Assembly: GCA_043718735.1 (NCBI GenBank)
Contig: JAYSVC010000032.1
Span: 1 to 41,161, forward strand
Source of the DNA: a bacterium
GTDB lineage: Bacteria > Patescibacteriota > Minisyncoccia > Phycocordibacterales > UBA5272
DNA: 41,161 nucleotides
Reading direction: 5' to 3'
Shown: piece by piece, positions 14,066-36,796 of the stretch
Layout of the letters: every line of letters starts with the position of its first letter
Position numbering within the stretch: position 1 is the first letter of the stretch
The notes under the pieces: generated by a model
The model's database searches: none
What the model saw: only the letters and a program-made list of their open reading frames with translations
Told to the model about the DNA's origin: nothing
Translations under genes and position numbers: made by a program

Positions 14066-15406
14066 ATGGCAAAAGTAGTAAAAAACATAATAACAGAAGA
14101 GTTAGTAAGACAAATAAGTCATGAGAAAAATGAGCCTTTTTGGATGTTGGAAAAAAGACTGGCTGCACTCGTTACTTTTTATGATATTTTAAAAGAAAAA
14201 GGAATGCCAAATTTTGGACCTGATTTGAGTGGACTTGATCTTGCAAAAATATCTTATTATAAATCACCAAAAACTGATGAGAAAAGTTCTTGGGCTGATG
14301 TACCACAAGACATAAAAGACACTTTTGATAAATTAGGAATACCGGCAGCCGAGCATGAATACTTGGGTGGCGTTGGTGCTCAGTATGACAGTGGTGTTGT
14401 GTATCACAAAGTAAAAGAGATATTAAAAAGGCAAGGAGTAGTATTTGAAAATATGGATACCGCCGTGCACATGTATCCAGAACTGGTGCAAAAGTATTTT
14501 ATGACTGATTGTGTGCCTGCTGGTGATCACTTGTTTACATCTATGCACGGTGCTGTGTGGAGTGGTGGTACTTTTATATATATACCCAAAGGTGTAAAAG
14601 CTTCCATGCCACTCCAAGCATATTTTCGTATGAATGAGCCCAGTGCTGGGCAGTTTGAACATACATTAATAATAGTAGATGAGAGGGCAAGTGTAGAATA
14701 TATAGAAGGTTGTAGTGCTCCAAAATATAATGCTAGTAGTCTCCATGCTGGATGTGTTGAGATATTTGTACACAAAAATGCAAAAGCAAAATATATAAGT
14801 GTAGAGAACTGGTCTAAGAATACATATAATCTCAATACAAAAAAAAGTATAGTATATGAAAATGGAGAGATAAATTGGATCAATGGCAACATGGGTTCAA
14901 AGGTCACTATGCTGTATCCTACTTCTATATTACTTGGTGATAACAGTAAATCAGAAAGTCTGGGCATAGTATTCGCAGGTGAGAATCAGAATCAGGATAC
15001 TGGATCAAAAGTAATACATATAGGTAAGAACACATCATCTGTAATTAAAAGTAAAAGTGTGAGTATGGATGGTGGAGTTTCTAATTATAGAGGATTTGTT
15101 CAGGTTGCAAAGTCTGCTCAGAATACAAAAAGTTATGTAAGTTGTGATGCTTTAATTTTAGATGAAAAGAGTAGTAGCACTACATTACCGATGAATAAAA
15201 TAGAAAATAAAAATGCCAACGTGACGCATGAAGCGACAGTTGGCAAGATTGGGGACAAGGAATTATTTTACCTTATGAGTCATGGATATTCAAAAGAAGA
15301 TGCTTACAGATTAGTTGTTGGTGGCTTTGTATCACCGATAATCCGCTCACTGCCTATTGAATATGCTATTGAGTTCAATAGGTTGGTAGAGCTTGAGATG
15401 GAGTAG
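14066..15406 (+). CDS. sufB: Fe-S cluster assembly protein SufB
   Basis: GVGAQYDS, AVWSGGTF, GQFEHTLI, YIEGCSAP and HEATVGKI motifs. Confidence 0.96.
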   Translation: MAKVVKNIITEELVRQISHEKNEPFWMLEKRLAALVTFYDILKEKGMPNFGPDLSGLDLAKISYYKSPKTDEKSSWADVPQDIKDTFDKLGIPAAEHEYLGGVGAQYDSGVVYHKVKEILKRQGVVFENMDTAVHMYPELVQKYFMTDCVPAGDHLFTSMHGAVWSGGTFIYIPKGVKASMPLQAYFRMNEPSAGQFEHTLIIVDERASVEYIEGCSAPKYNASSLHAGCVEIFVHKNAKAKYISVENWSKNTYNLNTKKSIVYENGEINWINGNMGSKVTMLYPTSILLGDNSKSESLGIVFAGENQNQDTGSKVIHIGKNTSSVIKSKSVSMDGGVSNYRGFVQVAKSAQNTKSYVSCDALILDEKSSSTTLPMNKIENKNANVTHEATVGKIGDKELFYLMSHGYSKEDAYRLVVGGFVSPIIRSLPIEYAIEFNRLVELEME

Positions 15407-15740
15407 ATGTATCAGCTTCCAAAGTTGTTTGCTCAATATCTGAAATAACCATGGTATAACTTTTGAGTGCAGGGGATGTGGTAATAATAAATGAATACAT
15501 TAGATTATCTACAATACAGTACCAATTTATTTTATATTCTGTTTGAGGGGTATACCACCCACCCTTGCTTTCATTTCTATTTTTACAAATCGTATATATC
15601 TTCTCTTTTAATTCAATAAGATTTACTTTGCAAATCAATATTTTCTTATTTGGAAAATGTGTTTGTATTTGCTCCAGAACATGAGTGTAGACTCTGTTTG
15701 CTTTGTTTTCAAGATTTTCTATTTGTCTATAGATACCCAT
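15375..15740 (-). CDS. orphan hypothetical protein A (121 aa)
   Basis: AGGAG SD upstream and its own promoter; 3' end overlaps the sufB 3' end by 32 nt. Confidence 0.7.
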   Translation of the reverse strand: MGIYRQIENLENKANRVYTHVLEQIQTHFPNKKILICKVNLIELKEKIYTICKNRNESKGGWYTPQTEYKINWYCIVDNLMYSFIITTSPALKSYTMVISDIEQTTLEADTSTPSQALPTY

Positions 15741-15760
15741 TTTAATTCTCCTATTTGATT

Positions 15761-15810
15761 AAAGAACAATTACAAAATCATAATACAATAAATACATGAT
15801 AATTACAAGT
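15761..15810 (-). repeat. 50-bp promoter/leader repeat, copy 1
   Basis: 45/50 identical to 17922-17971; contains TTGTAA-17-TATTAT and AATTGTTCTTT. Confidence 0.85.
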
Positions 15811-15872
15811 AAAAGTAGTGTGAAGCTATTAAAAGGTCACACAGGGAAAATAAAAACTTTTGAAATAAACAT

Positions 15873-15931
15873 TTGACTAAAACATTTAAATAGTGTAGTA
15901 TGAGGAAGTAATTTTTAACCTTTAAAAGGAG
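15873..15931 (+). promoter_or_regulatory. sigma70-type promoter and SD of orphan B
   Basis: TTGACT (15873), 17 bp, TAGTAT (15896); AGGAG at 15927. Confidence 0.7.
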
Positions 15932-15937
15932 AAATCG

Positions 15938-17032
15938 ATGAGTAAAAATATTGAAAAACTTAAAAAATTAGTCTTAAGAATGTTGCTTGATGGTGGTGGA
16001 GAGGGAGATACTTCACTCAGATTTGCTCAGGCATTAGTCAGAAAAGATAAAGATTTGGCTCATGAGCTTTGTTCTGGTGTAATAAATACAGAGAGAGAAG
16101 TTTCAGAGTTGTCTGACTCTCTTAGAAGTAAGATAGTAGAAGCGGAAGCTGAAAAACAAAAATTTTTTACAGAAAGTGACAAGGTTTCAGTACTTTTATC
16201 AGAAATATCTACATTACTTATTGATTTTGATGGTAAATATTTATCAAAATTAAATAAATCTTTTTCAAGTTATTCATCGTCAGATTTTTCACAGTTTCTA
16301 AAAACTCCAATGGTTATTAGAATTATAATTGATGCAAAATATAATTGGTTTGAAAAATTGATGATTATTATTTTTAATAAAAATCCAGAAACTTTACCAG
16401 TTCATATTTCAGATCAAGCTAGTCTCTTAAAAGATTTAGAAAGACAAACAATAGTCGCCGGTGAAGAATTGACTAGGTTGTTAGACAAGAAAAGCACGTT
16501 AGAAAATCTGGCCAATCTTCAATATATTTTAGTTCAAACAGTTGAACCAAAATCTGTTAAAGTGAAAGAGGTTACACTTCTTTCTGAAATAACAAAAAAG
16601 GAGGATCAGTTCAAAGCTGACGTAGCCTCAGAATTAGATATGTTCGACAAAATAGTTGAAAAGAAAAAAGCTGAGATATTGGCAATAAGGGAAGAGGCTG
16701 ACAAAGAGGCTAAGAAATTAGAAGAAATCAGGACTCGCATAGCAAAAGCTAATTTAAAATTAAAGTCAGTTGAAGATAAAATATCTCCATATGACAGAAT
16801 GGTCTTGAATGCTGATGCTTTGGAAAAAATACTTGAAAATGTAAGAGAGACAGGAAAAGTTAATAATGAGAGTGGTACAAAAGTAGACGAAAAGCTAGGC
16901 GTGTTACTATCTATGGGACTGCAGACATTATTTAACATACCATCACGTAAAGAAGCTGGTATAGCATATGTTAATGATAGTGAACTTCAAGTTCAGGTTA
17001 AAGACTTTAAAAAGGTGATACAAAATATATAA
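15938..17032 (+). CDS. orphan coiled-coil protein B (364 aa)
   Basis: Long ORF with E/K/L-rich helical composition, SD, promoter and terminator. Confidence 0.8.
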   Translation: MSKNIEKLKKLVLRMLLDGGGEGDTSLRFAQALVRKDKDLAHELCSGVINTEREVSELSDSLRSKIVEAEAEKQKFFTESDKVSVLLSEISTLLIDFDGKYLSKLNKSFSSYSSSDFSQFLKTPMVIRIIIDAKYNWFEKLMIIIFNKNPETLPVHISDQASLLKDLERQTIVAGEELTRLLDKKSTLENLANLQYILVQTVEPKSVKVKEVTLLSEITKKEDQFKADVASELDMFDKIVEKKKAEILAIREEADKEAKKLEEIRTRIAKANLKLKSVEDKISPYDRMVLNADALEKILENVRETGKVNNESGTKVDEKLGVLLSMGLQTLFNIPSRKEAGIAYVNDSELQVQVKDFKKVIQNI

Positions 17033-17036
17033 AAAC

Positions 17037-17062
17037 AACCCCACAAATTAATTTGTGGGGTT
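17037..17062. terminator. bidirectional terminator shared by orphans B and C
   Basis: aaccccacaaat-ta-atttgtggggtt inverted repeat. Confidence 0.8.
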
Positions 17063-17071
17063 TTATTCTAT

Positions 17072-17896
17072 TTAATTTATAGCCAAATATTTTTCGCGCA
17101 AGCCAGATGTTTTTATCAAACCAATTTGCTCAGTTCCAAACACATCGATAATATCATTAAGCTTCGCCCATTTGGCGAATTTGTAAAGCATCTTGTCATA
17201 CACATCTTCTTCGGTTGTAATTTTAGGATTTTTCATTGAGAAAAATCCTACATAGTCACACTCTTTTTCTAACTCTATTAAAGTAGAAAATTCACCGATA
17301 CTACCACCGGTACGTGGGTCATATTCTGTACCCAGTCCAATAAATTGGACAAAAACTTTTTTATTTTTTATGCTTTTAACATAATTAATAAAATCATTAT
17401 GATTACCTTCATCTTGACCATCACTTATAAAGCTAATGTAAATAACATCAGACAAGTCTCCACCCCCGACAGCCATTTTCATAGCTGGAAGATACAAAGT
17501 TCCTCGTTCCTCATTTTCAAAATTAGACCTGATAAGTGCCGCAGCTGAACCGTAGCGATTTTTAGTAATTTTACCAATATTTTTAGCAACATTACCGAGA
17601 CCAATACAATCAACTTCTGCATTCTCATTTTTAAGTAGACGATGAGACAGGGTGATGACACGCTCGGTAGCAATTTGCACGAATCCATTGTTAAAGTATA
17701 AGTCCATGGACCCACTGACGTCAGCTACTGATCTGAACTTATCAATTAATGGTTTGATAATGCCATGTTTTCTGAGTGCAGGGTCAAGTTCATGGGCTTT
17801 TTTTACGATGAGTAGTTCATCAGAAGATTTTGCTTCCATGTCCCGCTTATTAAAAATAGCAGGTAAGTTAGTGGGGTTCTTATTTTTGTCGGACAT
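17072..17896 (-). CDS. vWA domain protein, TerF-C-terminal-like (orphan C)
   Basis: MIDAS DVSGS, GTLYLPAM, FISDG and FVQFIGLG motifs. Start MSDKNKN follows AAGGAG. Confidence 0.8.
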   Translation of the reverse strand: MSDKNKNPTNLPAIFNKRDMEAKSSDELLIVKKAHELDPALRKHGIIKPLIDKFRSVADVSGSMDLYFNNGFVQIATERVITLSHRLLKNENAEVDCIGLGNVAKNIGKITKNRYGSAAALIRSNFENEERGTLYLPAMKMAVGGGDLSDVIYISFISDGQDEGNHNDFINYVKSIKNKKVFVQFIGLGTEYDPRTGGSIGEFSTLIELEKECDYVGFFSMKNPKITTEEDVYDKMLYKFAKWAKLNDIIDVFGTEQIGLIKTSGLREKYLAIN

Positions 17897-17921
17897 TTTT
17901 TCTCTCCTTGAGTTTTGGTTA

Positions 17922-17971
17922 AAAGAACAATTACAAAAACATAATACAATAAACAAATTATAATTGCAAGT
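17922..17971 (-). repeat. 50-bp promoter/leader repeat, copy 2
   Basis: 45/50 identical to 15761-15810; contains TTGCAA-17-TATTAT. Confidence 0.85.
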
Positions 17972-18039
17972 CTTGTTAGAATTATGGTATAATAGTTATA
18001 AGATTTATTTTTATTTATAAAATATAATACATAGTATCC

Positions 18040-18657
18040 ATGACTAACTACGGCTTAAAAGTAAATACAAAATATAATTTAAAAGATTATGAAGAAAAAG
18101 TAATGACTACTGCAGGAGATATTGTTTTATTTGAAAGTGGTATATATAAAATATATTGTGATGGAGATATTTTCATAAAGCATAATATTACGAACAGGCT
18201 AATACATATAAAATGTATTAGCACTCGTGATGACATAAAAATAAATATAGAGGCGAGTGGTATGGTGGGTGGCGCCGAAGGCGCCACCCATGAAGAAAAT
18301 GTTCCTAGGATTTGTTCTGACATATATCACGAAGTCTCAGCGCAAAATAAAAACATAGAAGTAAATATAAAAACAAAATGTGTGGTAGGTGATAATGCAA
18401 AAATAATATATAGATCAAATATAATGAGCTGTAATGGAAGTGGAACAGGAAGTCAAAAAGCAGAGTTTTTAAAAATTAATGATGGTAGCGAAGTGGATGC
18501 AGAGCCAAGCTTAAGCATATTGGGAGATAATTTTAAATGTTCGCACTCATTCTCTGTGACTAAAATAAATGAAGAAAAAGAAAATTACTTAGCTCTTCAT
18601 GGTTATGAAAAAGAAGATATAGAAAAAGAAATAGTAGAGAGTTTTTTAAATAGTTAA
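18040..18657 (+). CDS. sufD: short SufD-like (SufBD family) protein
   Basis: C-terminal VDAEPSLSI...KCSHS...YL..G....I...IVESFL pattern; directly upstream of sufS. Confidence 0.7.
   Translation: MTNYGLKVNTKYNLKDYEEKVMTTAGDIVLFESGIYKIYCDGDIFIKHNITNRLIHIKCISTRDDIKINIEASGMVGGAEGATHEENVPRICSDIYHEVSAQNKNIEVNIKTKCVVGDNAKIIYRSNIMSCNGSGTGSQKAEFLKINDGSEVDAEPSLSILGDNFKCSHSFSVTKINEEKENYLALHGYEKEDIEKEIVESFLNS
18266..18290. repeat. GC-rich intragenic palindrome
   Basis: tgggtggcgcc-gaa-ggcgccaccca, a perfect 11-bp stem. Confidence 0.8.
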
Positions 18658-18681
18658 ATATGCTATAATCTCAAGTAAGAC

Positions 18682-19935
18682 ATGAACAAAGAAGATTTTC
18701 AAATATTTGATAATTACAAAAAAGAAACTGGAGAAAACCTAGTTTATTTTGATAATGCATCTACTTCGCAAACCCCTCATCAGGTGTTAGATGTTATGAA
18801 TTATTATTATACGAATCATAAGACAAACATAGATAGGGGATTGTATAAAATAGAAGAAATATCTACTTCAAAATATGAAGAAGCTAGAAAAAAGATAGCT
18901 AACTTTTTAAATGTAGAAAATGATGAAGTTATATTTACTGGTGGAGCAACTGACAGTTCTAACAAGCTTATGACGTTAATAGAAAAACATCTAGCAAAAT
19001 ATCCAGACTTATATAAAACAAAAAACGAAATACTGGTAAGTGTAAATACTCATCACAGTGAATTTTTGCCATTACAAGAATATGCAAAGAGAAATAATCT
19101 AACAATAAAGATATTAAATAATTTAGAAGAGTTAGAAAAAGAGATAACAGAAAAAACTTTGCTGGCCTCTCTACAATTAGTTAGTAATGTTACCGGATTA
19201 ATTTTAAAAAAAGAAGATGTAAAAAAAATAGTAGTAAAATGTAAAGAATCACACGCATTTTCTATTTTAGATATCAGTGCAGGAGCGGGACATATAAATA
19301 TTAATTTAAAGGATTTGGATTGTGATGCGACTTACTTTTCTGCACACAAAATGTGTGGACCGTCAGGAGTTGGGGTTTTATTTTTAAAGAGATTATACAG
19401 TCGCGACATGTTACCTGTTTATGTTGGTGGTGGTATGGTGGGCGTTGTTAATGAGTTAGAAAGTAATTACAGGAGTGATATAAAAGCTTTTGAAGCAGGG
19501 ACGCAAAATATCCCTGCTGTAATAGGTTTTGCTGCTGCTGTAGATTATTTGGAAAAGATTGGATTAGATAATATATATAATCACAATCAGGAATTATTAA
19601 AATATTTTCATGAAAAGTTAAAGCAAGAAGAAAATAGAAATAATAAAAATAATATAAAAATCTATTCAGAAGAAAATCTGGAAAATAATATTGGAATAAT
19701 ATCTTTTAATATTAAAAATAATAGTGGAGAATTAATACATGCTCATGACGTGGCACAGATACTAGCTGATAATAATATTTGTGTTAGAAGTGGTCATCAC
19801 TGCGCAGCATTACTTATGAAAAAGTTAGAAGTATCAGCTGTTACCAGATTGTCTTTTTATTTTTATAATACAAAAGAAGATATTGATTTATTTTTTATTG
19901 CGATTAAAAAAGTCATAGATAAGTTTAGTGTTTAA
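18682..19935 (+). CDS. sufS: cysteine desulfurase, SufS family
   Basis: YFDNASTSQ, SAHKM (PLP lysine), FEAGT and RSGHHCA motifs. Confidence 0.94.
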   Translation: MNKEDFQIFDNYKKETGENLVYFDNASTSQTPHQVLDVMNYYYTNHKTNIDRGLYKIEEISTSKYEEARKKIANFLNVENDEVIFTGGATDSSNKLMTLIEKHLAKYPDLYKTKNEILVSVNTHHSEFLPLQEYAKRNNLTIKILNNLEELEKEITEKTLLASLQLVSNVTGLILKKEDVKKIVVKCKESHAFSILDISAGAGHININLKDLDCDATYFSAHKMCGPSGVGVLFLKRLYSRDMLPVYVGGGMVGVVNELESNYRSDIKAFEAGTQNIPAVIGFAAAVDYLEKIGLDNIYNHNQELLKYFHEKLKQEENRNNKNNIKIYSEENLENNIGIISFNIKNNSGELIHAHDVAQILADNNICVRSGHHCAALLMKKLEVSAVTRLSFYFYNTKEDIDLFFIAIKKVIDKFSV

Positions 19936-19939
19936 AATA

Positions 19940-19974
19940 AAAATAGCTTCACAAAAAAATTGTGAAGCTGTTTT
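19940..19974. terminator. bidirectional terminator between sufS and orphan D
   Basis: agcttcacaa...ttgtgaagct stem with A and T flanks. Confidence 0.75.
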
Positions 19975-19997
19975 GATTTGTGTTTTAGTTTTGATTT

Positions 19998-20264
19998 TTA
20001 ATTTCTAATCAAAAGCTTCTTCCATTCATCGATTGCTTGGCGATTGTTTACGCCAGAAACCAAAACGAGACAGCGGGGATGATTCATTGCTGAGGTTTTG
20101 TTGGGATTGTTTTCCAGCACTTCAACAAGTGAAAGGATGCCATTTTTAAAAGTTTTGTTAAACCATTTTTGTAGACGCACATACAATCGATGCATTTTTG
20201 TCTGCCAGTGACGACATCCAACTATGGCAACTTTTGCATATGAACTAAAATGTGTATTTTTCAC
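19998..20264 (-). CDS. orphan hypothetical protein D (88 aa)
   Basis: GTG start after AAAGGAG, with its own promoter and terminator. Confidence 0.65.
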   Translation of the reverse strand: MKNTHFSSYAKVAIVGCRHWQTKMHRLYVRLQKWFNKTFKNGILSLVEVLENNPNKTSAMNHPRCLVLVSGVNNRQAIDEWKKLLIRN

Positions 20265-20318
20265 GTGCTTTCTCCTTTAATATTAGTGCGAGACATTCAC
20301 ACTTTCATGGGAAATTAT

Positions 20319-20347
20319 ATAATACACTATATTATAACTTTTAGCAA
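20319..20347 (-). promoter_or_regulatory. promoter of orphan D
   Basis: TTGCTA, 17 bp, TATTAT. Confidence 0.65.
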
Positions 20348-20426
20348 GTATTAAATACAAAGTTATTTTGTTATAATAAAAATAAGATTAATTTATATAA
20401 TTAAATATTTAAAAATAAAGAATATT

Positions 20427-22115
20427 ATGACACAAGAAAATCAAAATAAAATAATAGAAAATACTACAAATAGTAAAGAGATAGCAGCTTTACTTTTCCC
20501 AAATATTGCAAATGGTGTAGAAAAAAATAGAGAGTATTTTGAGGCTGAGCGTCTAAAATTATTAGAAGCTCGTAAGCTCGCAGGACGAATGGGTTCAGGA
20601 GCTGAGACATTACGTGTTGCTCCATCTCCAACAGGATTCCCACATATTGGTCTGGTTTACATGGCGCTTATATCTTCTAAAATAGCAAGACAGACAAGCG
20701 GAACTTTTTGTCTACGCATCGAGGATACAGATTCTTTGCGTGAGATGGATGGTGCAAGGCAAATAATTATAGACACTTTGCTTGATTATAGTATAAAATA
20801 TGATGAGTATTATGTTCAGTCAGAAAGAGTAGAGCAGTATAAGGCTTTTGCATTTGAAATGGTTGATTTAGGTAATGCTTATCCATGCTTCATAAGAAAA
20901 GAAGAATTAGATGCATTACGTGAGATACAAACAGTAAGTAAGGTCCGTCCCGGCATATATGGAAAATATGCTACCAATCGTGACCTCTCTCTTGGAGAAA
21001 TAAAAAATAAAATTGACAATGGGGAAAAGTTTGTTTTACGCATGAAGGCAAGTGGTGATGTAAATAACAAGAATAAATTCGTAGATGAATTTCTGGGTGA
21101 GCACAGGATACCTGAAAATGATGAAGATTTTGTTTTGCTTAAAAGTGATGGTGTTCCAACCTATCACTTTGCGCATGTTGTTGATGATTATTTATTGGGT
21201 ACAACTTTTGTAACTAGGGCTGAAGAGTGGTGGTCTTCATTACCAAAACACGTTTCTCTTTGGAAGGCTCTTGATTTACCTTGTCCAAAATATGGACATA
21301 TAATGCCAATAAATAAAACAGAACAAAAAGTTTTAGAAGATGGAAGTATAAAAAATACAGTTAGAAAATTATCTAAAAGAAAAGACCCAGAAGCAAGCAT
21401 GAGTTATTACACTGATCAGGGGTATTCGTCAGATGCTGTGACTGCATATCTGTACAGATTAGCTAATCCTAATTTTGATGAGTGGTTTACAGAGAATGTT
21501 TCAGATAAAAAAGATAAGGCATACAAAATAGATGATTATGTTTTGAATATGGATGAGATGAAGCGTAGTAGCCGTGGACCATTACTTGATTTTGTAAAAT
21601 TAAATAATATTTCAAGTGATATTATATCGAACATGTCATCAAAAGACATTGCAGAAAAAGTTCTTTCTTGGTCCAAAATAAATGATAAAGATTTTTATAA
21701 TATCATATCAAAAGATATACCATATTTAGAAAAAGTATTAAACATAGAACGTGAGACAGAGAATCCTAGAAAAGATATATATAATTTATCTTGTGTAAAG
21801 TCTAATGTTTTTTATATGTTTGAAGATCTGTTTGAGGATGAAAAAGTTGATTTCGTATGTGATGAGAAAATATTAGAGAAAATAAAATCAATACTAAACA
21901 ATGACATAAATTACAAAGAAGATACGATACTAGAAGATTGGATGATTTTTATGAAAGAAGAATATGCAAAAATAAAAGAAGAGTTTAATAATATAAAATT
22001 CGGAGAGATGATGATGATAATGAGAAGACTAATAACAAAGAGAGAGAAGACTCCAAATTTGTATTTTATTTTTCAAACACTTGGAAAGGAAGAGATTTTA
22101 AGAAGGTTTAAATAA
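20427..22115 (+). CDS. gltX: glutamate--tRNA ligase
   Basis: RVAPSPTGFPHIG, LRIEDTD, PTYHFAHVVDD and KLSKR motifs. Confidence 0.95.
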   Translation: MTQENQNKIIENTTNSKEIAALLFPNIANGVEKNREYFEAERLKLLEARKLAGRMGSGAETLRVAPSPTGFPHIGLVYMALISSKIARQTSGTFCLRIEDTDSLREMDGARQIIIDTLLDYSIKYDEYYVQSERVEQYKAFAFEMVDLGNAYPCFIRKEELDALREIQTVSKVRPGIYGKYATNRDLSLGEIKNKIDNGEKFVLRMKASGDVNNKNKFVDEFLGEHRIPENDEDFVLLKSDGVPTYHFAHVVDDYLLGTTFVTRAEEWWSSLPKHVSLWKALDLPCPKYGHIMPINKTEQKVLEDGSIKNTVRKLSKRKDPEASMSYYTDQGYSSDAVTAYLYRLANPNFDEWFTENVSDKKDKAYKIDDYVLNMDEMKRSSRGPLLDFVKLNNISSDIISNMSSKDIAEKVLSWSKINDKDFYNIISKDIPYLEKVLNIERETENPRKDIYNLSCVKSNVFYMFEDLFEDEKVDFVCDEKILEKIKSILNNDINYKEDTILEDWMIFMKEEYAKIKEEFNNIKFGEMMMIMRRLITKREKTPNLYFIFQTLGKEEILRRFK

Positions 22116-22135
22116 TAGTAATTTTTACGAAAATA

Positions 22136-22160
22136 AAAAGCAGTAATATTTACTGCTTTT
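22136..22160. terminator. bidirectional terminator between gltX and orphan E
   Basis: aaaagcagtaa-tat-ttactgctttt. Confidence 0.8.
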
Positions 22161-22182
22161 GTTTTTTATTTAATTTAAAACA

Positions 22183-22620
22183 TTAAGACCATTTGGTTTT
22201 AATATATTTAGGGTCTAATTTCTTTCCTAGAAAATATAGTCTATTTTTAATTAAAATCATTGTTATTTTAAAAGCTTCTTCACTATACTTTCCTTTTAGA
22301 AATGATAAGTCAGTTTCCATGATGTTAATTTTTGAGAAAAATGTAGCATAGAGAACTTCACGATAATCACACTCACCCATAATACCAATATCAATAATGG
22401 CAATTTTTTCAGGAGTGCCTTTTCTGAACTCGGCACCCCCATCAAATTCGTCCTTTACCACAGGCAGGAGATACTCAGAAAGTTTTTTTAGTGTAGCTGC
22501 ATAAAGGTAAATTATTTCGCTATCAACTATTCCAGTCACAGCCACACACCGTTGCTTATAAACAGCGAAGACTTTATTTTTCTTTGGTAATATTTTCCTA
22601 CCTTCTGTCATTTGAACCAT
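22183..22620 (-). CDS. orphan hypothetical protein E (145 aa)
   Basis: Start MVQMTEG after TAAGGAG; own promoter. Confidence 0.7.
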   Translation of the reverse strand: MVQMTEGRKILPKKNKVFAVYKQRCVAVTGIVDSEIIYLYAATLKKLSEYLLPVVKDEFDGGAEFRKGTPEKIAIIDIGIMGECDYREVLYATFFSKINIMETDLSFLKGKYSEEAFKITMILIKNRLYFLGKKLDPKYIKTKWS

Positions 22621-22680
22621 TTTGAACTCCTTAGTTAAATTAAAGATTTTAGTTTGAAGGTTTATTTTCAAAGCTTTATT

Positions 22681-22709
22681 ATAATATAACATTATCTTTC
22701 TTTTTGCAA
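22681..22709 (-). promoter_or_regulatory. promoter of orphan E
   Basis: TTGCAA, 17 bp, TATTAT. Confidence 0.7.
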
Positions 22710-22813
22710 GTTTATTCTTAAGAAAATATTCACTGTATACTTTATATGAAATATATGTTATATTTAATTTTCAATTGTTCATTTTAATTAATTTTATTTT
22801 AAGGAGAATCAAG

Positions 22814-23338
22814 ATGACTTATGAACCAAGTAGAAGAAATCTAAGTGCTGTACTAATGATGTTGAACAATATCGAAGAAGCAAAGGAAGGGCACAATGAA
22901 AATCCCGCTGCAAAAGCAGGACATGAAGCAGGTAAAAAAATTTTAGCTATGCGAGAAGCAGAAAATCCAAAAATACTTAGTGATGAGCAAATAGAGGCCC
23001 AGCAAAAAGTTACTTTGAAATCAGGTAAAGAAGTAGTGCTTTTCACTTTTGGGCATAATTATGGACCAAGTCTACAGCCTAATTTTCGCTCATTAACAGA
23101 AATCGAATGCATAGAACTGTGTGAACTGAACCCTGATCTACCGGCAGAGTTTATGTTTATCGTAAATGATAAAGGTTTATATTTCTGCTACAACGATGAT
23201 ATCACTGCACTTGTTTCGCTTAATCCGTTGGACAGTCTTACTAAAGTTATGAAAAGTGATAACCCTATGCTTCAAAGTGATTTACCTTTTTGGCATCACT
23301 ATATATGTTATTTGCCTCAAATTAAATTAACTATGTAA
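22814..23338 (+). CDS. orphan hypothetical protein F (174 aa)
   Basis: Start MTYEPS after TAAGGAG; leader contains CAATTGTTCATTTTAA; terminator follows. Confidence 0.75.
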   Translation: MTYEPSRRNLSAVLMMLNNIEEAKEGHNENPAAKAGHEAGKKILAMREAENPKILSDEQIEAQQKVTLKSGKEVVLFTFGHNYGPSLQPNFRSLTEIECIELCELNPDLPAEFMFIVNDKGLYFCYNDDITALVSLNPLDSLTKVMKSDNPMLQSDLPFWHHYICYLPQIKLTM

Positions 23339-23376
23339 GATATATTTAATGTATAAAAAGTATTTTACATAAAAAC

Positions 23377-23402
23377 AAAAGCAAGAGAAATCTTGCTTTT
23401 TT
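23377..23402 (+). terminator. intrinsic terminator of orphan F
   Basis: aaaagcaaga-gaaa-tcttgctttttt. Confidence 0.8.
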
Positions 23403-23490
23403 ATTTTGTCTAGACTTTTTTTAAAAAATATGTTAATATAAGTGTAATAAAAATTCTAAAAATAAAAATAGAATATAAACAAAAACACAT

Positions 23491-24465
23491 ATGTTAACAG
23501 ATAAAGTAACTTTAAAATTAAGCGCCGGAAAGGGTGGTGATGGAGTGGTGCGTTGGAGACGTGAAAAAGGTATACCTTATGGTGGTCCTGCTGGTGGTGA
23601 CGGTGGTAAAGGGGGAGACGTATACCTGCGTGTAATACGTGACGTATATGCACTGGGTGAATACAGACAAAAACCAGAATGGTCAGCTAAAGAGGGTGAC
23701 AGAGGAGAGAAGAGGAGTATGCATGGAGCTAATGCTGGTGACCTGATAATGAATGTGCCAATAGGTTCTATAGTATATAATCGTGATTATGACATAACTT
23801 ATGACCTTTCAAATGATGGGGAATTAATCAAAATCTTAAAAGGTGGACGCGGTGGTCTTGGTAATGAGAACTTTAAGACGAGTACAAACAGAACACCAGA
23901 AGAGTTTACGAGGGGGCAATTAGGTGAGTCAGCTACTTTTGATATTGAGTTACGACTTATCGCTGATGTAGGACTCATAGGAAAACCAAATGCTGGCAAG
24001 TCATCACTACTTAACGCGGTCACTCGTGCTGGAGCAAAAGTTGGTGATTATCCATTTACGACACTCGAGCCTAATCTTGGAGTGTATCATGATTACATTT
24101 TGGCTGATATACCAGGTCTAATTGAGGGAGCTAGTGATGGAAAGGGTCTAGGAATAAAGTTCTTAAAACATATTAGAAGAACTAACACACTGGTGCATCT
24201 TATCGCATCTAACGAAGAAGATCCAGCAAAAGAATACAAGATAATTAGAAATGAATTAGAAAAGTTCGATCCTGAAATGAGTAAAAAGAGGGAAATAGTA
24301 GTTATATCTAAAACAGACTTAGTAAGTGAAACAGAATTAAAAGAGAAAGTAAAAGCTTTTGAAAAAGACACAAAAATAAAACCATTAACACTGACTCTTT
24401 TTGATGACAGGTCAGTTAAAAGCTTTGGAGATAATCTTATTTTAGAATTATCAAAAACAAATTAA
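23491..24465 (+). CDS. obg: GTPase ObgE/CgtA (short C-terminus)
   Basis: Gly-rich Obg domain; GKPNAGKS, YPFTT and DIPG motifs. Confidence 0.96.
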   Translation: MLTDKVTLKLSAGKGGDGVVRWRREKGIPYGGPAGGDGGKGGDVYLRVIRDVYALGEYRQKPEWSAKEGDRGEKRSMHGANAGDLIMNVPIGSIVYNRDYDITYDLSNDGELIKILKGGRGGLGNENFKTSTNRTPEEFTRGQLGESATFDIELRLIADVGLIGKPNAGKSSLLNAVTRAGAKVGDYPFTTLEPNLGVYHDYILADIPGLIEGASDGKGLGIKFLKHIRRTNTLVHLIASNEEDPAKEYKIIRNELEKFDPEMSKKREIVVISKTDLVSETELKEKVKAFEKDTKIKPLTLTLFDDRSVKSFGDNLILELSKTN

Positions 24466-24468
24466 AGG

Positions 24469-25053
24469 TTATTTTAAAAGTTGCTTATGTTTACCTGGGG
24501 TGAATATTCCTAAATCCCTATTCTTTAATTGCATACAAGATATGAGTGTATCAGTTACACTATTGCTATTTTTAGTTTCTGAAAATAAATTAAAACCGTA
24601 TCTTGGATAAGATATATCTTCTTTATTTATATCTTCTCTGCAAACTGCTGCCTGATCCCAGATTACATTTATATAATCTTTTGTGCCTGATGCTATTTCT
24701 ATGCCTGTGTCACCTATGTCTAACTTCCTAGTCTCTTTGTATAAGTCATAATCAAATATGTAAACTTTTAATTTATCTGTTTTTTTATCACCAATCATTT
24801 TTGCATTACCATTTTCATCAGTAGCTAGGCCATGTATCTGATGTAATACATTATCTTCATCATCTCGCATTTCTAGAAAAGTGTGTCCAGTTATACCGGC
24901 TAATAATTTATGTTCTCTTTTTTCTATTTTAAAATATCCAGACCCTTTTTTTATTTTAGGTCTAACATAATTATTATTCAATATTAAAAATATAAAAGAT
25001 AAAGCAAAAGTGATTTTTACTAAGTCTACTATTATGATTTTTAATTTATGCAT
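24469..25053 (-). CDS. hypothetical membrane-anchored protein
   Basis: 194-aa ORF with N-terminal TM, co-oriented downstream of gatB. Confidence 0.75.
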   Translation of the reverse strand: MHKLKIIIVDLVKITFALSFIFLILNNNYVRPKIKKGSGYFKIEKREHKLLAGITGHTFLEMRDDEDNVLHQIHGLATDENGNAKMIGDKKTDKLKVYIFDYDLYKETRKLDIGDTGIEIASGTKDYINVIWDQAAVCREDINKEDISYPRYGFNLFSETKNSNSVTDTLISCMQLKNRDLGIFTPGKHKQLLK

Positions 25054-25080
25054 AATTATTTTTACTTTGTATTATCTAAT

Positions 25081-26556: not shown

Positions 26557-26612
26557 AATTTTATAATTTATTTTCTTAAGCACATTATAGCATATTTTAT
26601 AATTTTTGTAAT

Positions 26613-26642
26613 AAAAAAAGCCGAACTTCCAAGTTCGGCTTT
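26613..26642 (-). terminator. intrinsic terminator of orphan G
   Basis: aaagccgaactt-cc-aagttcggcttt with a T-run on the minus strand. Confidence 0.8.
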
Positions 26643-26670
26643 AAAGCTAAAATTCTTTTTAGTTAAGTAT

Positions 26671-27637
26671 TTACAGTTGTATATACTTAGAGTTAGTAGC
26701 TTCTTTTGAAAGCTTTTTAAAGCTTTCAGTACAAGTTAACGCAGAGTGGTTAGTCACGCAGACAGCAATGACATTTTTCATGTCTTTTACTGTTGACCAG
26801 TTCCAGTCATCACCAACTTCATCACTAATCACTAACACATGTGTTGCTTTTTTATCAGCAAAAACATATTTTAGTGCTTTGTGAGTGTTTTCAATCGAAG
26901 TGTCACCAAACAGTTGCTGAGCTGTAAGAAGCTGTTAATGCTTGACGCAGACTAACATCATCAGTAGCATTATTAATGCTACGAACTTCAGATGAATAGA
27001 CATACAGTCCAGCAAATTTTTTACCACTTGCTTTTAGTGTGTCCATGACATACTGGGCTACCATTTGTCGTTTTGAATCCATGGACCCTGAGACGTCAAG
27101 TGCAACTGAAAGTGAATCATTCTCGGCTAGTCCTGCCACAGCACTTTTAATCGCTGCAACTTTTTCAGCTCCGAACACAGTCGTCATGTCTGATGACGTG
27201 TTATGCGCCACTGGGATTTTTATTTTCCAACCTGGCAACAGAGTGTTGGACCATGAGCGTTTGTAATTTTCATTACAGAACAGACTTTTGCTTTTGTGCA
27301 CTTTTTTATGAGCACGCTCGCAAGCATCTTCATACTCGCCAATCAACATTTTTGCATTGGCAAGAATCAACGCTTCGCGTTCAACGCCGTAACGGTCAGC
27401 AATAGCATTTAAAAACTCATCTTTTTTTACAGTGTGTTTTTTTGCTGTTGCCAAAGTTACTTGTGTTTTGATGTTTACTACAGGGGTAGTATTGACGACT
27501 GCACTTGGCGACACAGAAGTTGTTACTTGTCCTGAAGCTGTCGGATTTTTGCTTTTTACAGGAGCTTCATCACTGCAAGCAGTAATGAAGAGCGTAGCAG
27601 ATACTGCCAGCAGTAAGATTTTTTTTGAAATGAACAT
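26671..27637 (-). pseudogene. LysM + vWA lipoprotein (orphan G), frameshifted near 26920-26935
   Basis: Lipobox ITAC, LysM (HTVKKDEFLNAIADRYGV) and MIDAS DVSGS. The vWA domain continues in the +1 frame (FGDTSIENTHKAL...VLVISDE...YIQL*) to 26671. Confidence 0.78.
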
Positions 27638-27718
27638 GTTTCCCCTTTTTTAAGGTTTTAAAAATACATTTGTTTTTAATTAAAAGTTAATATAATTAAG
27701 ACAAATGCACGAACTTAT

Positions 27719-27793
27719 ATAATAGCATCGAATGTAATTAAAGTCAAGTAAAGAATATAAGCTTTTGCAAAAAAGACTCATAAATGCTAGTAT
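27719..27793. promoter_or_regulatory. back-to-back promoters of orphans G and H
   Basis: Minus strand: TTGACT-17-TATTAT (27747-27719). Plus strand: TTGCAA-17-TAGTAT (27765-27793). Confidence 0.72.
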
Positions 27794-27833
27794 TAAAAAG
27801 TATTTGTTTTTAACTTTTAATTAGGAGTCAAAA

Positions 27834-28469
27834 ATGCAAAACTTAAAGCAAGATGTTCTTTTTCCAGAGATAGAAATAGTGAAATCAGTCTTAGTCTTAT
27901 TGCCTTACAACACAGATCAGACTAGAATAGATATATTAAAGACAGTTTTATGTAAAACCCTAGAAGGCTTTGTTTTAAATGACAGCTCACTGCGTGATCA
28001 TGTTACTTTACTTGGTCCAGTAAAAATGTCAAAAGAGAAAGCTATGACCAGGGCACACAGAAGTAAGTGGCATGCAAATATAAATCATTTTTTTAACTTC
28101 AATGGTGGACTCTTTCTTTCTGTCGCAGATTTTTATTTTCATAAAAATATACTGTGCCTTAGACTGAACACAACCAGTCAGCATTTCAAAAAAGCAATAA
28201 TTAGGGAAAGAAAAAGTTATTATGATTCTCTTGTTTCTAATAATGACGCAAGCTTAGACCTGCACATCATACTCGGAACTTGTGACGGATCTAAAATTAA
28301 AAGTAACTTAAAACTACTTTCAAGATTGAGGAATACCTCAGAGTATGCTCATATTTTTAGTAAAGATTTTCATTTTCAAACTGCTCATTTTGTAAAAAGG
28401 GCGATAGAAGGTGCAAAATTTGAAAGATGGGCTAGTGGTCAATTGCAAACAGCTTCCTTCGACACTTAG
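27834..28469 (+). CDS. orphan H, possible 2H-phosphoesterase-fold protein
   Basis: HVTL motif and a second degenerate HIIL motif about 87 aa later; TAGGAG SD. Confidence 0.55.
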   Translation: MQNLKQDVLFPEIEIVKSVLVLLPYNTDQTRIDILKTVLCKTLEGFVLNDSSLRDHVTLLGPVKMSKEKAMTRAHRSKWHANINHFFNFNGGLFLSVADFYFHKNILCLRLNTTSQHFKKAIIRERKSYYDSLVSNNDASLDLHIILGTCDGSKIKSNLKLLSRLRNTSEYAHIFSKDFHFQTAHFVKRAIEGAKFERWASGQLQTASFDT

Positions 28470-28477
28470 TTAATTCT

Positions 28478-28513
28478 AAAAGCAAATAAGAAATACTTCT
28501 TATTTGCTTTTTT
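28478..28513 (+). terminator. intrinsic terminator of orphan H
   Basis: aaaagcaaataagaa-atac-ttcttatttgctttttt. Confidence 0.8.
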
Positions 28514-28561
28514 CTTTTTATGTTATAATTAGCTTAATATAAAATATCTCAAAATAACATC

Positions 28562-29350
28562 ATGCAAGACCAAGAGCTGACATTAGAAGAGTTTCAAAAT
28601 CTAAGTAAAATGCATTTAAGTGCAGAAAATATAGATAATAATAAAAATACTTTTGCGGTGAAGCAAGGTAGATTCGAAGGTCCATATACAAAGATTTTGG
28701 AGTTAATAGAATCTAGGAAATTAACCATATCAGAAATCTCTTTGTCTCAAATAGCTGATGACTACATTAATTATGTGAAGACATTAGAAACTGTAAACCC
28801 ATTAGACATATCACAATTTATACAGGTTGCCAGCACACTTATGCTGATAAAAGCAAAATCTCTACTACCTCAAATGGAATATACGAATGATGAGAAAGAA
28901 GAAGTAAATACATTAGAAAAGAAATTAGAATTACATAGAGAGTTAAAAATAGCTGAAGAAAATATAAAAGACATATGGGGAAAGAGTGTCTTATTAAGCA
29001 GAGAAGAAGTGAAGTATAAAGTAGAAAAAATATTCACACCTATTTCAGTGACATATGAAAATATTTTTTCTGTAGCAGTACTCACCCTTGCTAAAATGCC
29101 TAATTTTGAAAGGTTGAAGAATGTAGCAGTGCGTCAAGCGATAAAGTTAGAAGATGTAATAGAAAAAATGATAAGTAGAATCAGTGAAAGCATGACAAGT
29201 CTAAAGGATTTTGCAAAAAGTATGGGTGGTACTGAAAAAGAAGTGAAGAGGAATATTATAGTGAGCTTTTTAGCCTTATTAGAGCTGCTTCGCCATGGAA
29301 AGATAAATGCAGAAGAGAATGATGGTGATATAAGTATAAATAGTATATAA
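28562..29350 (+). CDS. scpA: segregation and condensation protein A
   Basis: FEGP..LL.LI, LIKAKSLLP and FLALLEL motifs. Confidence 0.93.
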   Translation: MQDQELTLEEFQNLSKMHLSAENIDNNKNTFAVKQGRFEGPYTKILELIESRKLTISEISLSQIADDYINYVKTLETVNPLDISQFIQVASTLMLIKAKSLLPQMEYTNDEKEEVNTLEKKLELHRELKIAEENIKDIWGKSVLLSREEVKYKVEKIFTPISVTYENIFSVAVLTLAKMPNFERLKNVAVRQAIKLEDVIEKMISRISESMTSLKDFAKSMGGTEKEVKRNIIVSFLALLELLRHGKINAEENDGDISINSI

Positions 29351-30903: not shown

Positions 30904-30934
30904 TGATATAATTATAAGTAAAGAAAATAAAATT

Positions 30935-31999: not shown

Positions 32000-32006
32000 A
32001 AAAACT

Positions 32007-35544: not shown

Positions 35545-35567
35545 AAAGTTATAGTATAATATTAAAT

Positions 35568-35681
35568 ATGATAACCCTCAGCTACATACAAATAATAATC
35601 GCCATACTTATAACTTTTGTTGTGGGTAAGTCTACAGGTGGACAGTTATGGGAAAAGTTTCTGTATGGAGATTTAAAATAA
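35568..35681 (+). CDS. small membrane peptide, 37 aa
   Basis: MITLSYIQIIIAILITFVVGKSTGGQLWEKFLYGDLK; TATAAT lies just upstream. Confidence 0.45.
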   Translation: MITLSYIQIIIAILITFVVGKSTGGQLWEKFLYGDLK

Positions 35682-35716
35682 ATTAGCTACAGAATTATAA
35701 TTATAAAAATATAAAA

Positions 35717-35818
35717 ATGATAAGAATAGAATTAAAAAGTTTTGCTTTGATGTTGGTATTAATATTTATATTAAGCGCTATCTATGGAGCCTATAAGCTA
35801 CACAAGGCCGTGCATTAA
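35717..35818 (+). CDS. small membrane peptide, 33 aa
   Basis: MIRIELKSFALMLVLIFILSAIYGAYKLHKAVH; A-rich leader; hairpin downstream. Confidence 0.45.
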   Translation: MIRIELKSFALMLVLIFILSAIYGAYKLHKAVH

Positions 35819-35845
35819 AAAAGCTACCAAAGTTAATGCCCAGAA

Positions 35846-35870
35846 ATAAAGCCTTCCTAAAAGGCTTTAT
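35846..35870 (+). terminator. hairpin, possible terminator
   Basis: ataaagcctt-cctaa-aaggctttat. Confidence 0.5.
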
Positions 35871-36131
35871 ATTTAAAGTATAGATAGTCGCAAAAGATAT
35901 ATTGTGCGACAACAGGTATGTAATAAACCTTTTAAAACAAAAAGACTAAGATGTGGCTAAATATAATAAACCTTATTAATTACAACCTCACCACTCTCCT
36001 CTTTTGTTTATATTCAGTTATTTTTTTATTATATAAAATAATAATATATAAGATGTTATCAACCTTCATCTCTAATTATTTTTCTCTAAACTTTTTTACT
36101 TTTGCCATTTTTTAGTATACAAGTAAACTAC

Positions 36132-36160
36132 TTGACAAAAATATAAATATAGTATATTAT
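36132..36160 (+). promoter_or_regulatory. promoter of orphan I
   Basis: TTGACA, 17 bp, TATTAT. Confidence 0.75.
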
Positions 36161-36227
36161 GTTTACTATAGATTAGTAACAATTCTGTTTTTAGTCTTTT
36201 GTACATATAATAATTAGGAGTTCTAAA

Positions 36228-36749
36228 ATGAGCACACTTTTCAACCCTACTGCATCCCTAACTGTAAATATTGACAATGATAAACACCCAACTTCACAGT
36301 TCTTTCTTAGTGATCAATACGCTAAAGTTATAAAAACTTATGGCAACCAGAATGAACTAATTTGGACAGATCCAGCAGTAACAAAAAATATTGCTGTTAA
36401 TAGTAAATTTTTGTCCGGTGAAGTAAAATTAAACTTTTACCCTCTCAGTAGAGATGGCAAAATATCCGATGAAAATGAATTTCAAAAACATGCTTTTGTT
36501 AGGCCGGCTGAGATCCTAGAAATCGTATCCTCATTGATCCGTCAAGGACTGGTTGAGAAAAGAAAAGAAGGTATACAGTCACGATCCTACGTATTGTACA
36601 CAGAAAATGGACATGTCTTTTTCAATAACTCTGTTTTTAGTTGGAACATTTATTTTAGAAATAACATATACTTGCTTGGAAAAACTCAATTTCCAGTATC
36701 TATGTATGAAATAGGTGAACATTGTACTGTAATCTCACTTGCAAAATAG
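36228..36749 (+). CDS. orphan hypothetical protein I (173 aa)
   Basis: TAGGAG SD, promoter and terminator. Confidence 0.75.
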   Translation: MSTLFNPTASLTVNIDNDKHPTSQFFLSDQYAKVIKTYGNQNELIWTDPAVTKNIAVNSKFLSGEVKLNFYPLSRDGKISDENEFQKHAFVRPAEILEIVSSLIRQGLVEKRKEGIQSRSYVLYTENGHVFFNNSVFSWNIYFRNNIYLLGKTQFPVSMYEIGEHCTVISLAK

Positions 36750-36767
36750 TAACTCAAAAAAGTTACT

Positions 36768-36796
36768 AAAAAGCGACATAAATATGTCGCTTTTTT
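36768..36796. terminator. bidirectional terminator between orphan I and ftsX
   Basis: aaaaagcgacata-aa-tatgtcgctttttt. Confidence 0.8.

Follow-up and report, generated by a model that had tools for sequence, protein, structure and literature searches.

ORFan genes led by Shine-Dalgarno boxes in a bacterium of the candidate phyla radiation whose 16S rRNA lacks the anti-Shine-Dalgarno sequence

The DNA stretch analysed here, hereafter the window, is the whole of the 41-kb contig C26 (41,161 nucleotides (nt)) of a small genome, G000, which is assembled in 37 contigs totalling 650 kb with 32.6% GC and an estimated completeness of ~92%. Nine orphan open reading frames (ORFs), designated A to I, are interspersed among its housekeeping genes and each of them is led by a Shine-Dalgarno (SD) box. 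The locus raises the question of why a dispersed minority of genes carries textbook signals for translation initiation, and of what reads these signals in a cell whose own 16S rRNA lacks the complementary anti-SD sequence. We privilege the hypothesis, to which we give somewhat better than even chances, that the nine orphans are part of a genome-wide set of fast-turnover ORFan cassettes with portable terminator-promoter-SD modules, lodged in a bacterium of the candidate phyla radiation (CPR) devoid of anti-SD.

Two expression grammars and a 16S tail without anti-SD

The initial annotation of the window, made from sequence, gave correct coordinates for the nine orphans (Table 1), but G is not one open frame, its reading being broken at 26908-26910; the other eight are open. 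The signals that it described are all seen. AGGAG lies 6 to 7 nt before the start codon in A to F, H and I, and AGGGG at 4 nt in G. A TTGNNN hexamer is found exactly 17 bp upstream of TATTAT or TAGTAT in A, B, C, D, E, G, H and I, while F has only an extended -10 box, TGTTATATT. Hairpins followed by T runs terminate B to I, with one bidirectional hairpin shared by B and C, and A has none, overlapping sufB instead. Terminator-like sites between 15300 and 29000 number 14, compared with 5.5 ± 2.2 in shuffled sequence. Seven housekeeping starts (uvrA, cysS, rnj, sufB, gltX, obg and scpA) had been noted to lack an SD, and this extends to all other 29 called genes of the window, the sole extra flag, at an internal TTG in scpB, being spurious. 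These non-orphan genes have TGnTATAAT-type boxes near the ATG and A-rich leaders.

The proposal of a dispersed class of autonomous single-gene units proves real at the scale of the genome, with a promoter, leader, SD and terminator grammar of its own. Among about 677 genes, called with a simple home-made codon-score caller and with start choices likewise home-made, roughly 60 to 84 are SD-led and these include the nine orphans. No SD-like motif is found at 585 of 669 starts. In 55 of 664 genes a GGAG ends 5 to 9 nt upstream of the first ATG, compared with 5 and 10 in two control windows farther upstream. The start positions of AGGAG peak at -11 (35 cases), -10 (16) and -12 (12), with about one per position elsewhere, and 64 of the 95 intergenic AGGAG motifs on both strands have a start codon 4 to 10 nt downstream. 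The consensus of the SD-led genes is A-A-G-G-A-G, and the spacers 3' of the box are A-rich like core leaders. The suspected link to orphan status is strong: a Pfam match is lacking in 68 of 84 SD-led genes and in 35 of 140 non-SD genes, the latter a random sample from 545 eligible genes (odds ratio 12.75, p = 1.3e-16). The SD candidates were 88, 20 with a Pfam match, and four of them (L14, RNase H, CTP synthase and dCTP deaminase) are N-truncated false calls.

The two sets of genes differ also in transcription signals and composition. Terminators accompany 44 of 82 SD-led and 118 of 538 non-SD genes, and the median upstream gap is 143 nt and 67 nt, respectively. Among genes with a -10 box, a good -35 box is present in 15/46 SD-led versus 20/277 non-SD genes, an extended TG in 6/46 versus 171/277, and the leaderless spacing of 5 to 9 nt between -10 box and ATG in 0/46 versus 70/277; the -10 box lies a median of 55 nt versus 22 nt from the start. 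TTGACAA is enriched upstream of SD-led genes (12/82 versus 5/544) and so are TAGTAT-type boxes. Core genes have TGnTATAAT promoters 5 to 35 nt from the ATG, about a quarter of them leaderless-looking, and A-rich leaders without SD. The products of SD-led genes are shorter (median 190 versus 230 amino acids), and there are modest shifts in GC content (35.6% versus 32.6%, p = 4e-6) and in TGA stops (14/83, 17%, versus 17/543, 3%; p = 7e-6). TGA recoding was discarded, RF1 and RF2 being both encoded and no tRNA-UCA being present. The nearest species, the sister G005, whose GltX is 83% identical, repeats the pattern with 56 of 621 genes SD-led, TGA stops in 9/56 versus 18/565, and 54 GGAG versus 12 GGAA boxes. 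Two expression grammars exist in this genome, and the SD grammar is associated with ORFan status.

Inspection of the 16S rRNA 3' end for an anti-SD gave a sharper result than expected. This end is found at the start of contig C34 (Rfam match to model positions 1339-1533), and the tail after helix 45, there and in contig C7 of G005, is AUUAAUUCCAAA. It has no CCUCC and reads AUUCC in its place; the canonical 13-base tail quoted by Amin et al. has CCUCC at that position (PMC6107228). Five further congeners have the identical tail, all seven tails seen in the genus being of the anti-SD-less type, and in two other families of the order the tails are devoid even of the CC. The genome's own 16S lacks an anti-SD, and the assembled sequence therefore encodes no SD-competent ribosome. 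The 16S sequences lie at contig ends, where a further rRNA copy could have escaped assembly; a mature tail ending in ...AUUCCAAA together with a single rRNA operon would support the SD paradox. CCTCC and CTCCT are absent from the 155 to 1,549 bases downstream of 16S at four same-genus loci and one other order-level locus, and in G020, a further relative at the level of the order, each motif occurs once, at 257 and 757 bases downstream. An alternative anti-SD within the 16S was provisionally set aside from the sequences of two congeners, G012 and G006: the only CCTCC common to both, at position 338, is apparently helical from sequence, and G006 has an additional CCTCC at position 199. Core leaders without SD fit a tail reading AUUCC. 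A new SD matching the variant tail was also rejected for core genes, in which tail-complementary 5-mers are unenriched and the mean energy is -1.9 versus -2.6 in a control window. Concerning ribosomal proteins, bS21 was not found in the genome, and neither was uL1 (PF00687), which a control search found in 14/14 genomes, although a 92%-complete genome cannot prove absence.

The altered tail can pair into a small hairpin with the sequence just downstream (G000 C34 ~165-190, equivalent to L045; L050, L051, L054). This hairpin covaries across the order, with UUCC..GGAA in this genus and UUCA..UGAA and UUCAA..UUGAA in two other families, and could be a processing stem or a folded tail.

Conserved boxes in cassettes of high turnover

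The SD box is under purifying selection in this anti-SD-less lineage. In 35 orthologous leader pairs of G000 and G005, 166 of 175 SD columns (95%) are identical, compared with 972 of 1225 other leader columns (79%; p = 7e-8). Five-base boxes are intact in 29 of the 35 pairs, with 14.4 expected, and seven leaders that are otherwise unalignable retain 33 of 35 SD columns. Conservation per position ranges from 85 to 97% between -1 and +4, where 33/34 pairs agree at each of -1, G, G, the fourth G and +4, and from 79 to 88% in the flanks. A box that is selectively kept implies that something reads it. The minority box is shaped for the canonical anti-SD and not for the tail of its own cell: GGAG occurs 56 times, GGAA 16, GGAT 6 and GGAC 0, in leaders where A is 4.6 times commoner than G (p = 2e-28), and SD-led leaders form duplexes averaging -7.8 kcal/mol with the canonical tail, compared with -4.7 with that of their own cell. 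Order-level relatives with tails without CC show little excess of AGGAG-N5-7-ATG.

The cassettes that carry these boxes are insertions with high turnover. In G005, counterparts of A, B, C, E, F, G, H and I occupy the corresponding slots with 46-79% identity, over which the orphan ORFs remain open, and neighbouring core proteins are 72-97% identical. Orthologs in G005 exist for 45 of 84 SD-led versus 465 of 562 non-SD genes, with a median amino acid identity of 76.6% versus 87.3%. In G000 and G005 the sufB/sufD slot houses A, B and C, in G001 and G007 it houses different ORFs, most of them SD-led, and it is empty in two congeners, G012 and G010, where the two genes are adjacent and 50-60 nt apart. 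Because this site is empty in congeners the orphans are read as high-turnover insertions, which favours the independent horizontal acquisitions that the initial annotation had offered as an alternative. Such acquisitions are not recent in this strain, however, eight of the nine orphans occupying the same slots in G005. Nor is recent transfer from unrelated donors supported, donor homologs being absent from the searched collections.

Whole modules are conserved or shared around unrelated ORFs. In the D slot the promoter, leader, SD and terminator are kept with three different small ORFs across G000, G005 and G008, and unrelated SD-led genes share upstream sequence in seven SD-SD pairs (29-85 nt, a 26-fold excess). 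At L037:12589-17977 (+), a run of ORFans with three SD-led members has intergenic regions that repeat one another (up to 89 nt at 92%), and resembles, on a small scale, the hyperplastic regions associated with the PeSLs that are discussed at the end of this article.

In our reading each cassette is self-contained: it has a -35/-10 promoter of the sigma-70 type, a leader of ~40-80 nt in which a GTTCWTT or CTCTTT box is frequent, A-A-G-G-A-G placed 5-7 nt before the start codon, and usually an intrinsic terminator. Cassettes would lodge at hot spots between conserved core genes of their host, a small CPR bacterium apparently without uL1 and without anti-SD. Their modules are probably portable, being common to unrelated ORFs and with one slot carrying different ORFs in different species. 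The cassettes may come from a gene pool with canonical SD translation, namely unsampled phages, plasmids or other bacteria, and would be shuffled by recombination between the conserved modules. The box is presumably still active in its present cell, either in the initiation of translation or in the control of this step.

Candidate readers of the box and origin of the cassettes

Sequence support exists for one reader alone, the UCC that survives in the 16S tail, with which GGA could pair, together with one extra G-U pair. We give this tentative reading less than even chances, some other reader being about as likely. In its favour are the duplex energies with the own tail, -4.7 kcal/mol for SD-led and -1.9 for core leaders, and the small AGGAG-N5-7-ATG excess in order-level relatives with tails without CC. 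UCC pairing leaves the preference for a fourth G and the preceding As unexplained, and several observations count against it. GGAG is used over GGAA although the own tail offers there a U that accepts either base; A precedes GGAG in 48 of 56 cases, where the own tail would favour U; this A and the fourth G are also kept between species; and core leaders reach only -1.9 kcal/mol with the own tail, with no complementarity beyond the control window.

Rather doubtful is the action of some further molecule of the cell, either an RNA-binding protein or a small RNA with a CUCCUU-like stretch, that would recognise AAGGAG beside the start codon and switch the whole ORFan class jointly as a separately regulated programme. 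It would account for the selection on all six positions, including those unable to pair with the own tail, and for class-wide leader boxes (GTTCWTT, CTCTTT) associated with a distinct promoter class. Searches for candidates gave none: the CsrA-type family PF02599 was not found in the genome, and conserved intergenic CTCCT/CCTCC segments in the comparison of G000 and G005 are tRNAs, rRNA, antisense SD copies and a gene remnant, with no conserved free CUCCU-bearing RNA among them. An Rfam search of the window gives no match. Moreover, the spacing of 5-7 nt is as 16S geometry dictates and would not obviously be needed by a different reader. The CTCTTT and TTCTTT leader boxes sequester the SD in cis only weakly, its unpaired probability being 0.36 versus 0.42 with shuffled upstream sequence (p = 0.02) and the SD being mostly paired in 76% versus 73% of the leaders.

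It is unlikely that the boxes are relics, carried by cassettes transferred from SD-using organisms, functionless but undecayed, with translation, if any, SD-independent like that of the core. Relics would explain a motif tuned to a canonical anti-SD absent from the cell, the higher GC and more frequent TGA stops, the patchy distribution with empty sites, and the A-rich spacers shared with core leaders. They are difficult to conciliate with a box that is better kept than its flanks between two anti-SD-less species, even in unalignable leaders, when AT-biased mutation should remove Gs first. Eight of the nine window orphans are also older than the split of G000 and G005, and no donors were found.

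Reading of the messages by ribosomes with a canonical anti-SD, either in the host cell of a presumed epibiont or from a second, unassembled rRNA operon, appears very unlikely. The box, stop codons and GC are indeed all shifted to the canonical bacterial grammar and maintained by selection, the proteins evolve fast as arms-race factors do, and the position of the 16S at contig ends leaves room for another copy. However, the genes are scattered without transfer borders, N-terminal hydrophobic signals are no commoner than in core genes, all seven 16S tails seen in the genus lack the anti-SD, and the bacterium has no known host. We know of no precedent for dispersed chromosomal transcripts passing between bacteria. 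A specific version, which we hold for highly improbable, is that the canonical SD, stop-codon use and shifted composition would form an address label, the ORFan transcripts being meant for the CCUCC ribosomes of the epibiont's host cell; the ORFans would then be effectors that reach the victim as RNA or DNA and undergo translation there, and poor templates for the ribosomes of the cell that encodes them. An artefact, whether DNA of an SD-using organism that entered by chimeric assembly or binning or a set of spurious ORFs, is largely refuted: the genome is a 37-contig metagenome bin and D scored below the calling threshold of the gene caller, but the orphans alternate with core genes on one contig, the arrangement is not chimeric since independent contigs from four runs, not marked as source, span the junctions of core genes with orphans, and G005 has the same arrangement with the ORFs open.

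The hypothesis of fast-turnover cassettes with portable modules has weak points of its own. Its selection test compares one species pair, G000 and G005, which is one evolutionary replicate. The home-made gene calls and start choices, the sampling of the non-SD genes in the Pfam comparison and the small number of module-sharing edges are further weaknesses. As a generic scan for the -35/-10 consensus gives no more sites in 15300-29000 than expected by chance (63 versus 65.6 ± 7.6), the promoter calls depend on the exact 17-bp spacing, on conservation in G005 and on genome-wide enrichment. What points to an origin in an SD-using pool is solely composition and signals, and the searches speak rather against it. 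B, C and H have only same-genus relatives, and no donor, in collections of 5.8 and 1.84 billion proteins, and C returned only the G005 locus from GTDB species-representative genomes. Scans of viral contigs with B and one other SD-led protein gave no close relative. A phage origin was not supported, PHROGs matching 4 of 68 Pfam-less SD-led proteins, and no phage structural or integrase genes were seen around the cassettes, which are flanked by housekeeping genes. The ORFs scanned in the window have no integrase or transposase domain, as initially annotated.

The loss of the anti-SD in some Parcubacteria and the overall lack of SDs in such organisms were already known. What seems to be new is that a coherent and sizeable minority of genes keeps a textbook SD under purifying selection, and that this minority coincides with fast-turnover ORFans and a different promoter class. 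No report of such a minority was found in limited searches of the literature on anti-SD and SD, leaderless genes and translation initiation in Patescibacteria, Parcubacteria and CPR. A natural system in which the tail is gone and the box is kept makes it testable whether an SD is read only by the 16S tail. The presence or absence of an SD provides a simple flag separating accessory cassettes from core genes in CPR genomes, which are mostly unannotated. Our analysis also suggests that the turnover of genes in ultra-small chromosomes of bacteria is driven by portable terminator-promoter-SD modules of the type known from phages.

Gene products, further features and comparison with known systems

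Sequence homology and structure models give few clues to the function of the orphans (Table 1). Apart from C, which is vWA-TerF-like, and G, a lipoprotein in which LysM and vWA domains are recognised, no family is assigned to the orphans. The mean pLDDT of AlphaFold2 models is 36 for I and 38 for E, poor for want of homologs. ESM Atlas matches of I are CPR hypothetical clusters only, and the nearest ESM Atlas clusters are from Minisyncoccota, which we take only as a lead to the placement of this bacterium in Parcubacteria. For E the nearest clusters are C-terminal fragments of type IV coupling proteins (TraG-D_C; score 0.91, 153-160 shared features); this identity was not retained, the score being under the reliable range and without Pfam support. 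An 810-amino-acid partial match of H has spurious Pfam matches only. The frame break of G is due to one extra T in a short T run (26905-26912), the vWA domain continuing in another frame, and a co-occurring strain contig (run X4, depth 4.3 of 12.8) without one base at 26909 would bring the two parts of G into one frame. The break may reflect a strain-level pseudogene, a switch at the homopolymer or an error in assembly. G also ends in TGA, as A does.

Annotated SD-led genes elsewhere in the genome lean accessory. They encode DHFR, thymidylate kinase, a PurA-like enzyme with two phage-family neighbours, PhoH-PIN, an AEP-like primase, a Tad4-like domain, HSDR_N, a GDSL lipase and solute-binding proteins. 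Three consecutive SD-led genes at L015:5562-9140 (-), coding for an adenylosuccinate-synthetase homolog, phrog_2971 (E = 4e-52) and a phrog_3043 kinase, are a phage-like nucleotide-metabolism module. Known defence systems were not retained as a function of the class, PADLOC giving weak partial matches for 2 of 84 SD-led proteins. A secretome hypothesis was discarded as well, N-terminal hydrophobic segments being as common as in core genes (19% versus 21%), and so was the expansion of paralogous families, since just 3 small blastp families include SD-led genes.

Table 1. Orphan genes of the window with their regulatory modules and terminators.
Feature	Position	Strand	Remarks
Orphan A, 121 amino acids (aa), no family, stop codon TGA; 32-nt overlap of its 3' end with sufB	15375..15740	-	G005 ortholog 54% identical
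A regulatory module: TTGTAA, 17 bp, TATTAT, GTTCTTT leader, AGGAG 7 nt before ATG	15748..15808	-	50 nt 90% identical to module of unrelated gene C
B regulatory module: TTGACT, 17 bp, TAGTAT, AGGAG 6 nt before ATG	15873..15931	+	G005: promoter conserved; SD kept, flanks diverged
Orphan B, 364 aa, no family	15938..17032	+	3 homologs including itself in 5.8 billion proteins
Bidirectional hairpin terminator, common to B and C	17037..17062	.	
Orphan C, 274 aa, vWA-TerF-like domain	17072..17896	-	PF10138, E = 8e-19; only close relatives found
C regulatory module: TTGCAA, 17 bp, TATTAT, GTTCTTT leader, AGGAG 7 nt before ATG	17904..17969	-	SD degraded in G005
D terminator hairpin	19939..19970	-	Conserved in G005
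Orphan D, 88 aa, GTG start	19998..20264	-	Slot: barely related small ORF in G005, unrelated in G008
D regulatory module: TTGCTA, 17 bp, TATTAT, AGGAG 7 nt before GTG	20272..20347	-	Conserved in G005 despite different ORF
E terminator hairpin	22135..22160	-	
Orphan E, 145 aa, no family	22183..22620	-	G005 ortholog 50% identical, leader nearly identical
E regulatory module: TTGCAA, 17 bp, TATTAT, AGGAG 6 nt before ATG	22627..22709	-	
F regulatory module: extended -10 (TGTTATATT), GTTCATT leader, AGGAG 7 nt before ATG	22756..22806	+	
Orphan F, 174 aa, no family	22814..23338	+	
F terminator hairpin	23377..23402	+	
G terminator hairpin	26613..26642	-	
Orphan G: lipoprotein-type signal, LysM, vWA domain; frameshifted in this assembly at T run 26908-26910	26671..27637	-	
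G regulatory module: TTGACT, 17 bp, TATTAT, AGGGG 4 nt before ATG	27642..27747	-	
H regulatory module: TTGCAA, 17 bp, TAGTAT, AGGAG 6 nt before ATG	27765..27827	+	Conserved in G005
Orphan H, 211 aa, no family	27834..28469	+	3 matches in 1.84 billion representatives
H terminator hairpin	28478..28513	+	
I regulatory module: TTGACA, 17 bp, TATTAT, AGGAG 7 nt before ATG	36132..36220	+	30 nt shared with module of unrelated SD-led gene, contig C10
Orphan I, 173 aa, no family	36228..36749	+	G005 ortholog 74% identical
I terminator hairpin	36769..36796	+	

The backbone of the window comprises uvrA, cysS, dus, a pseudouridine synthase gene, two tandem RNase J genes, secG, sufB, sufD, sufS, gltX, obg, gatB, scpA, scpB, mraY, ftsW, murG, ftsX, ftsE, prfB and ATP synthase subunit genes. 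The tandem RNase J paralogs lie at 8421-10268 and 10304-12022 (-), the second without a clear metallo-beta-lactamase match. The RF2 homolog at 38456-39343 (-) is short (295 amino acids), is matched by the prfB profile only from position 115 and has a promoter-like box directly upstream; in other bacteria, the programmed frameshift site of RF2 genes depends on an SD inside the gene. Within the 680-nt "empty" stretch that precedes orphan I there are two uncalled mini-ORFs, at 35570-35682 and 35718-35818 (+), each with a -10-like box just upstream, whose hydrophobic products of 37 and 33 amino acids are likely small membrane proteins. At ~35985-36005 (-), an SD-like GAGGAG is followed by GTG and a stop after three codons, and may be the stump of a lost SD-led cassette. 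Elsewhere in the genome, an isoleucyl-type aminoacyl-tRNA synthetase has an inserted histidine-phosphatase domain at residues 523-683 (L031:10632-14156, -) and the PheRS beta chain an inserted NlpC/P60 domain at residues 370-471 (L049:2182-4650, +). A 350-nt non-coding stretch at L034:1000-1349, 97.7% identical in G005 and without Rfam match, resembles gene remnants and a 22-codon ORF.

Comparison with known systems places the cassettes between several categories. They share with canonical SD-dependent initiation the purine box complementary to CCUCC, but the CCUCC is absent from the own 16S and dependence on the box is predicted only. With recent horizontal-transfer islands they have in common an atypical composition, and they differ in having no close donor homologs and, among the window ORFs scanned, no adjacent integrase or transposase. 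Bacteroidetes initiate translation in an SD-independent manner from A-rich leaders without SD, with rare SD-led exceptions among regulatory genes, and keep an anti-SD that is hidden; in the present genome the tail has changed in sequence, and the exceptions are made up of ORFans and not of ribosomal genes. The T-DNA of Agrobacterium consists of bacterial genes with the expression grammar of another cell, transferred as one bordered segment. It offers an analogy for expression in a host cell only, the orphan genes being dispersed.

Amin et al. (2018; PMC6107228) describe that where the anti-SD is absent no SD motif is enriched genome-wide, nor any variant SD matching the variant tail. This pattern is true here for the bulk of genes; their analysis used whole-genome motif enrichment, in which a subclass of ~10% like the present one would not register. 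The subgroup of Parcubacteria without anti-SD motif described by Tsurumaki et al. (2022; PMC9297842) overlaps with the group lacking uL1. The present genome resembles it, being small, with a 16S without CCTCCT, uL1 not found and most genes without SD, and it departs from the subgroup as described by its minority of genes with a canonical SD.

Phage morons are presented as independent transcription units that are inserted between genes adjacent in relatives and spread horizontally (Bacteriophage 2012; PMC3594210). The orphan units have, at the sequence level, their own promoter and terminator (A is without terminator), and an insertion between genes adjacent in relatives is seen at the sufB/sufD slot of G012 and G010. 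They differ from morons in lacking a prophage context, with their housekeeping flanks and few PHROGs matches. A closer parallel is found in the PeSL cassettes of T4-type phages, where Arbiol et al. (2010; PMC2839356) describe intergenic modules that flank ORFans and join a terminator of the stem-loop type to a -35/-10 promoter of the sigma-70 type, an SD and a start codon; these modules are repeated in the genome, with insertions, deletions and replacements between close relatives occurring at them. Unlike PeSLs, the orphan modules reside in a cellular chromosome amid housekeeping genes and not in a phage hyperplastic region, their SD is mismatched to the resident ribosome, and recombination between them is only proposed. 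The likeness to PeSLs lies in the units themselves, which are terminator, sigma-70 promoter and SD modules around ORFans, and may extend to the repetition of modules and the replacement of genes at them, to which the seven pairs of shared modules and a D slot that holds different ORFs behind a conserved leader and terminator would point.

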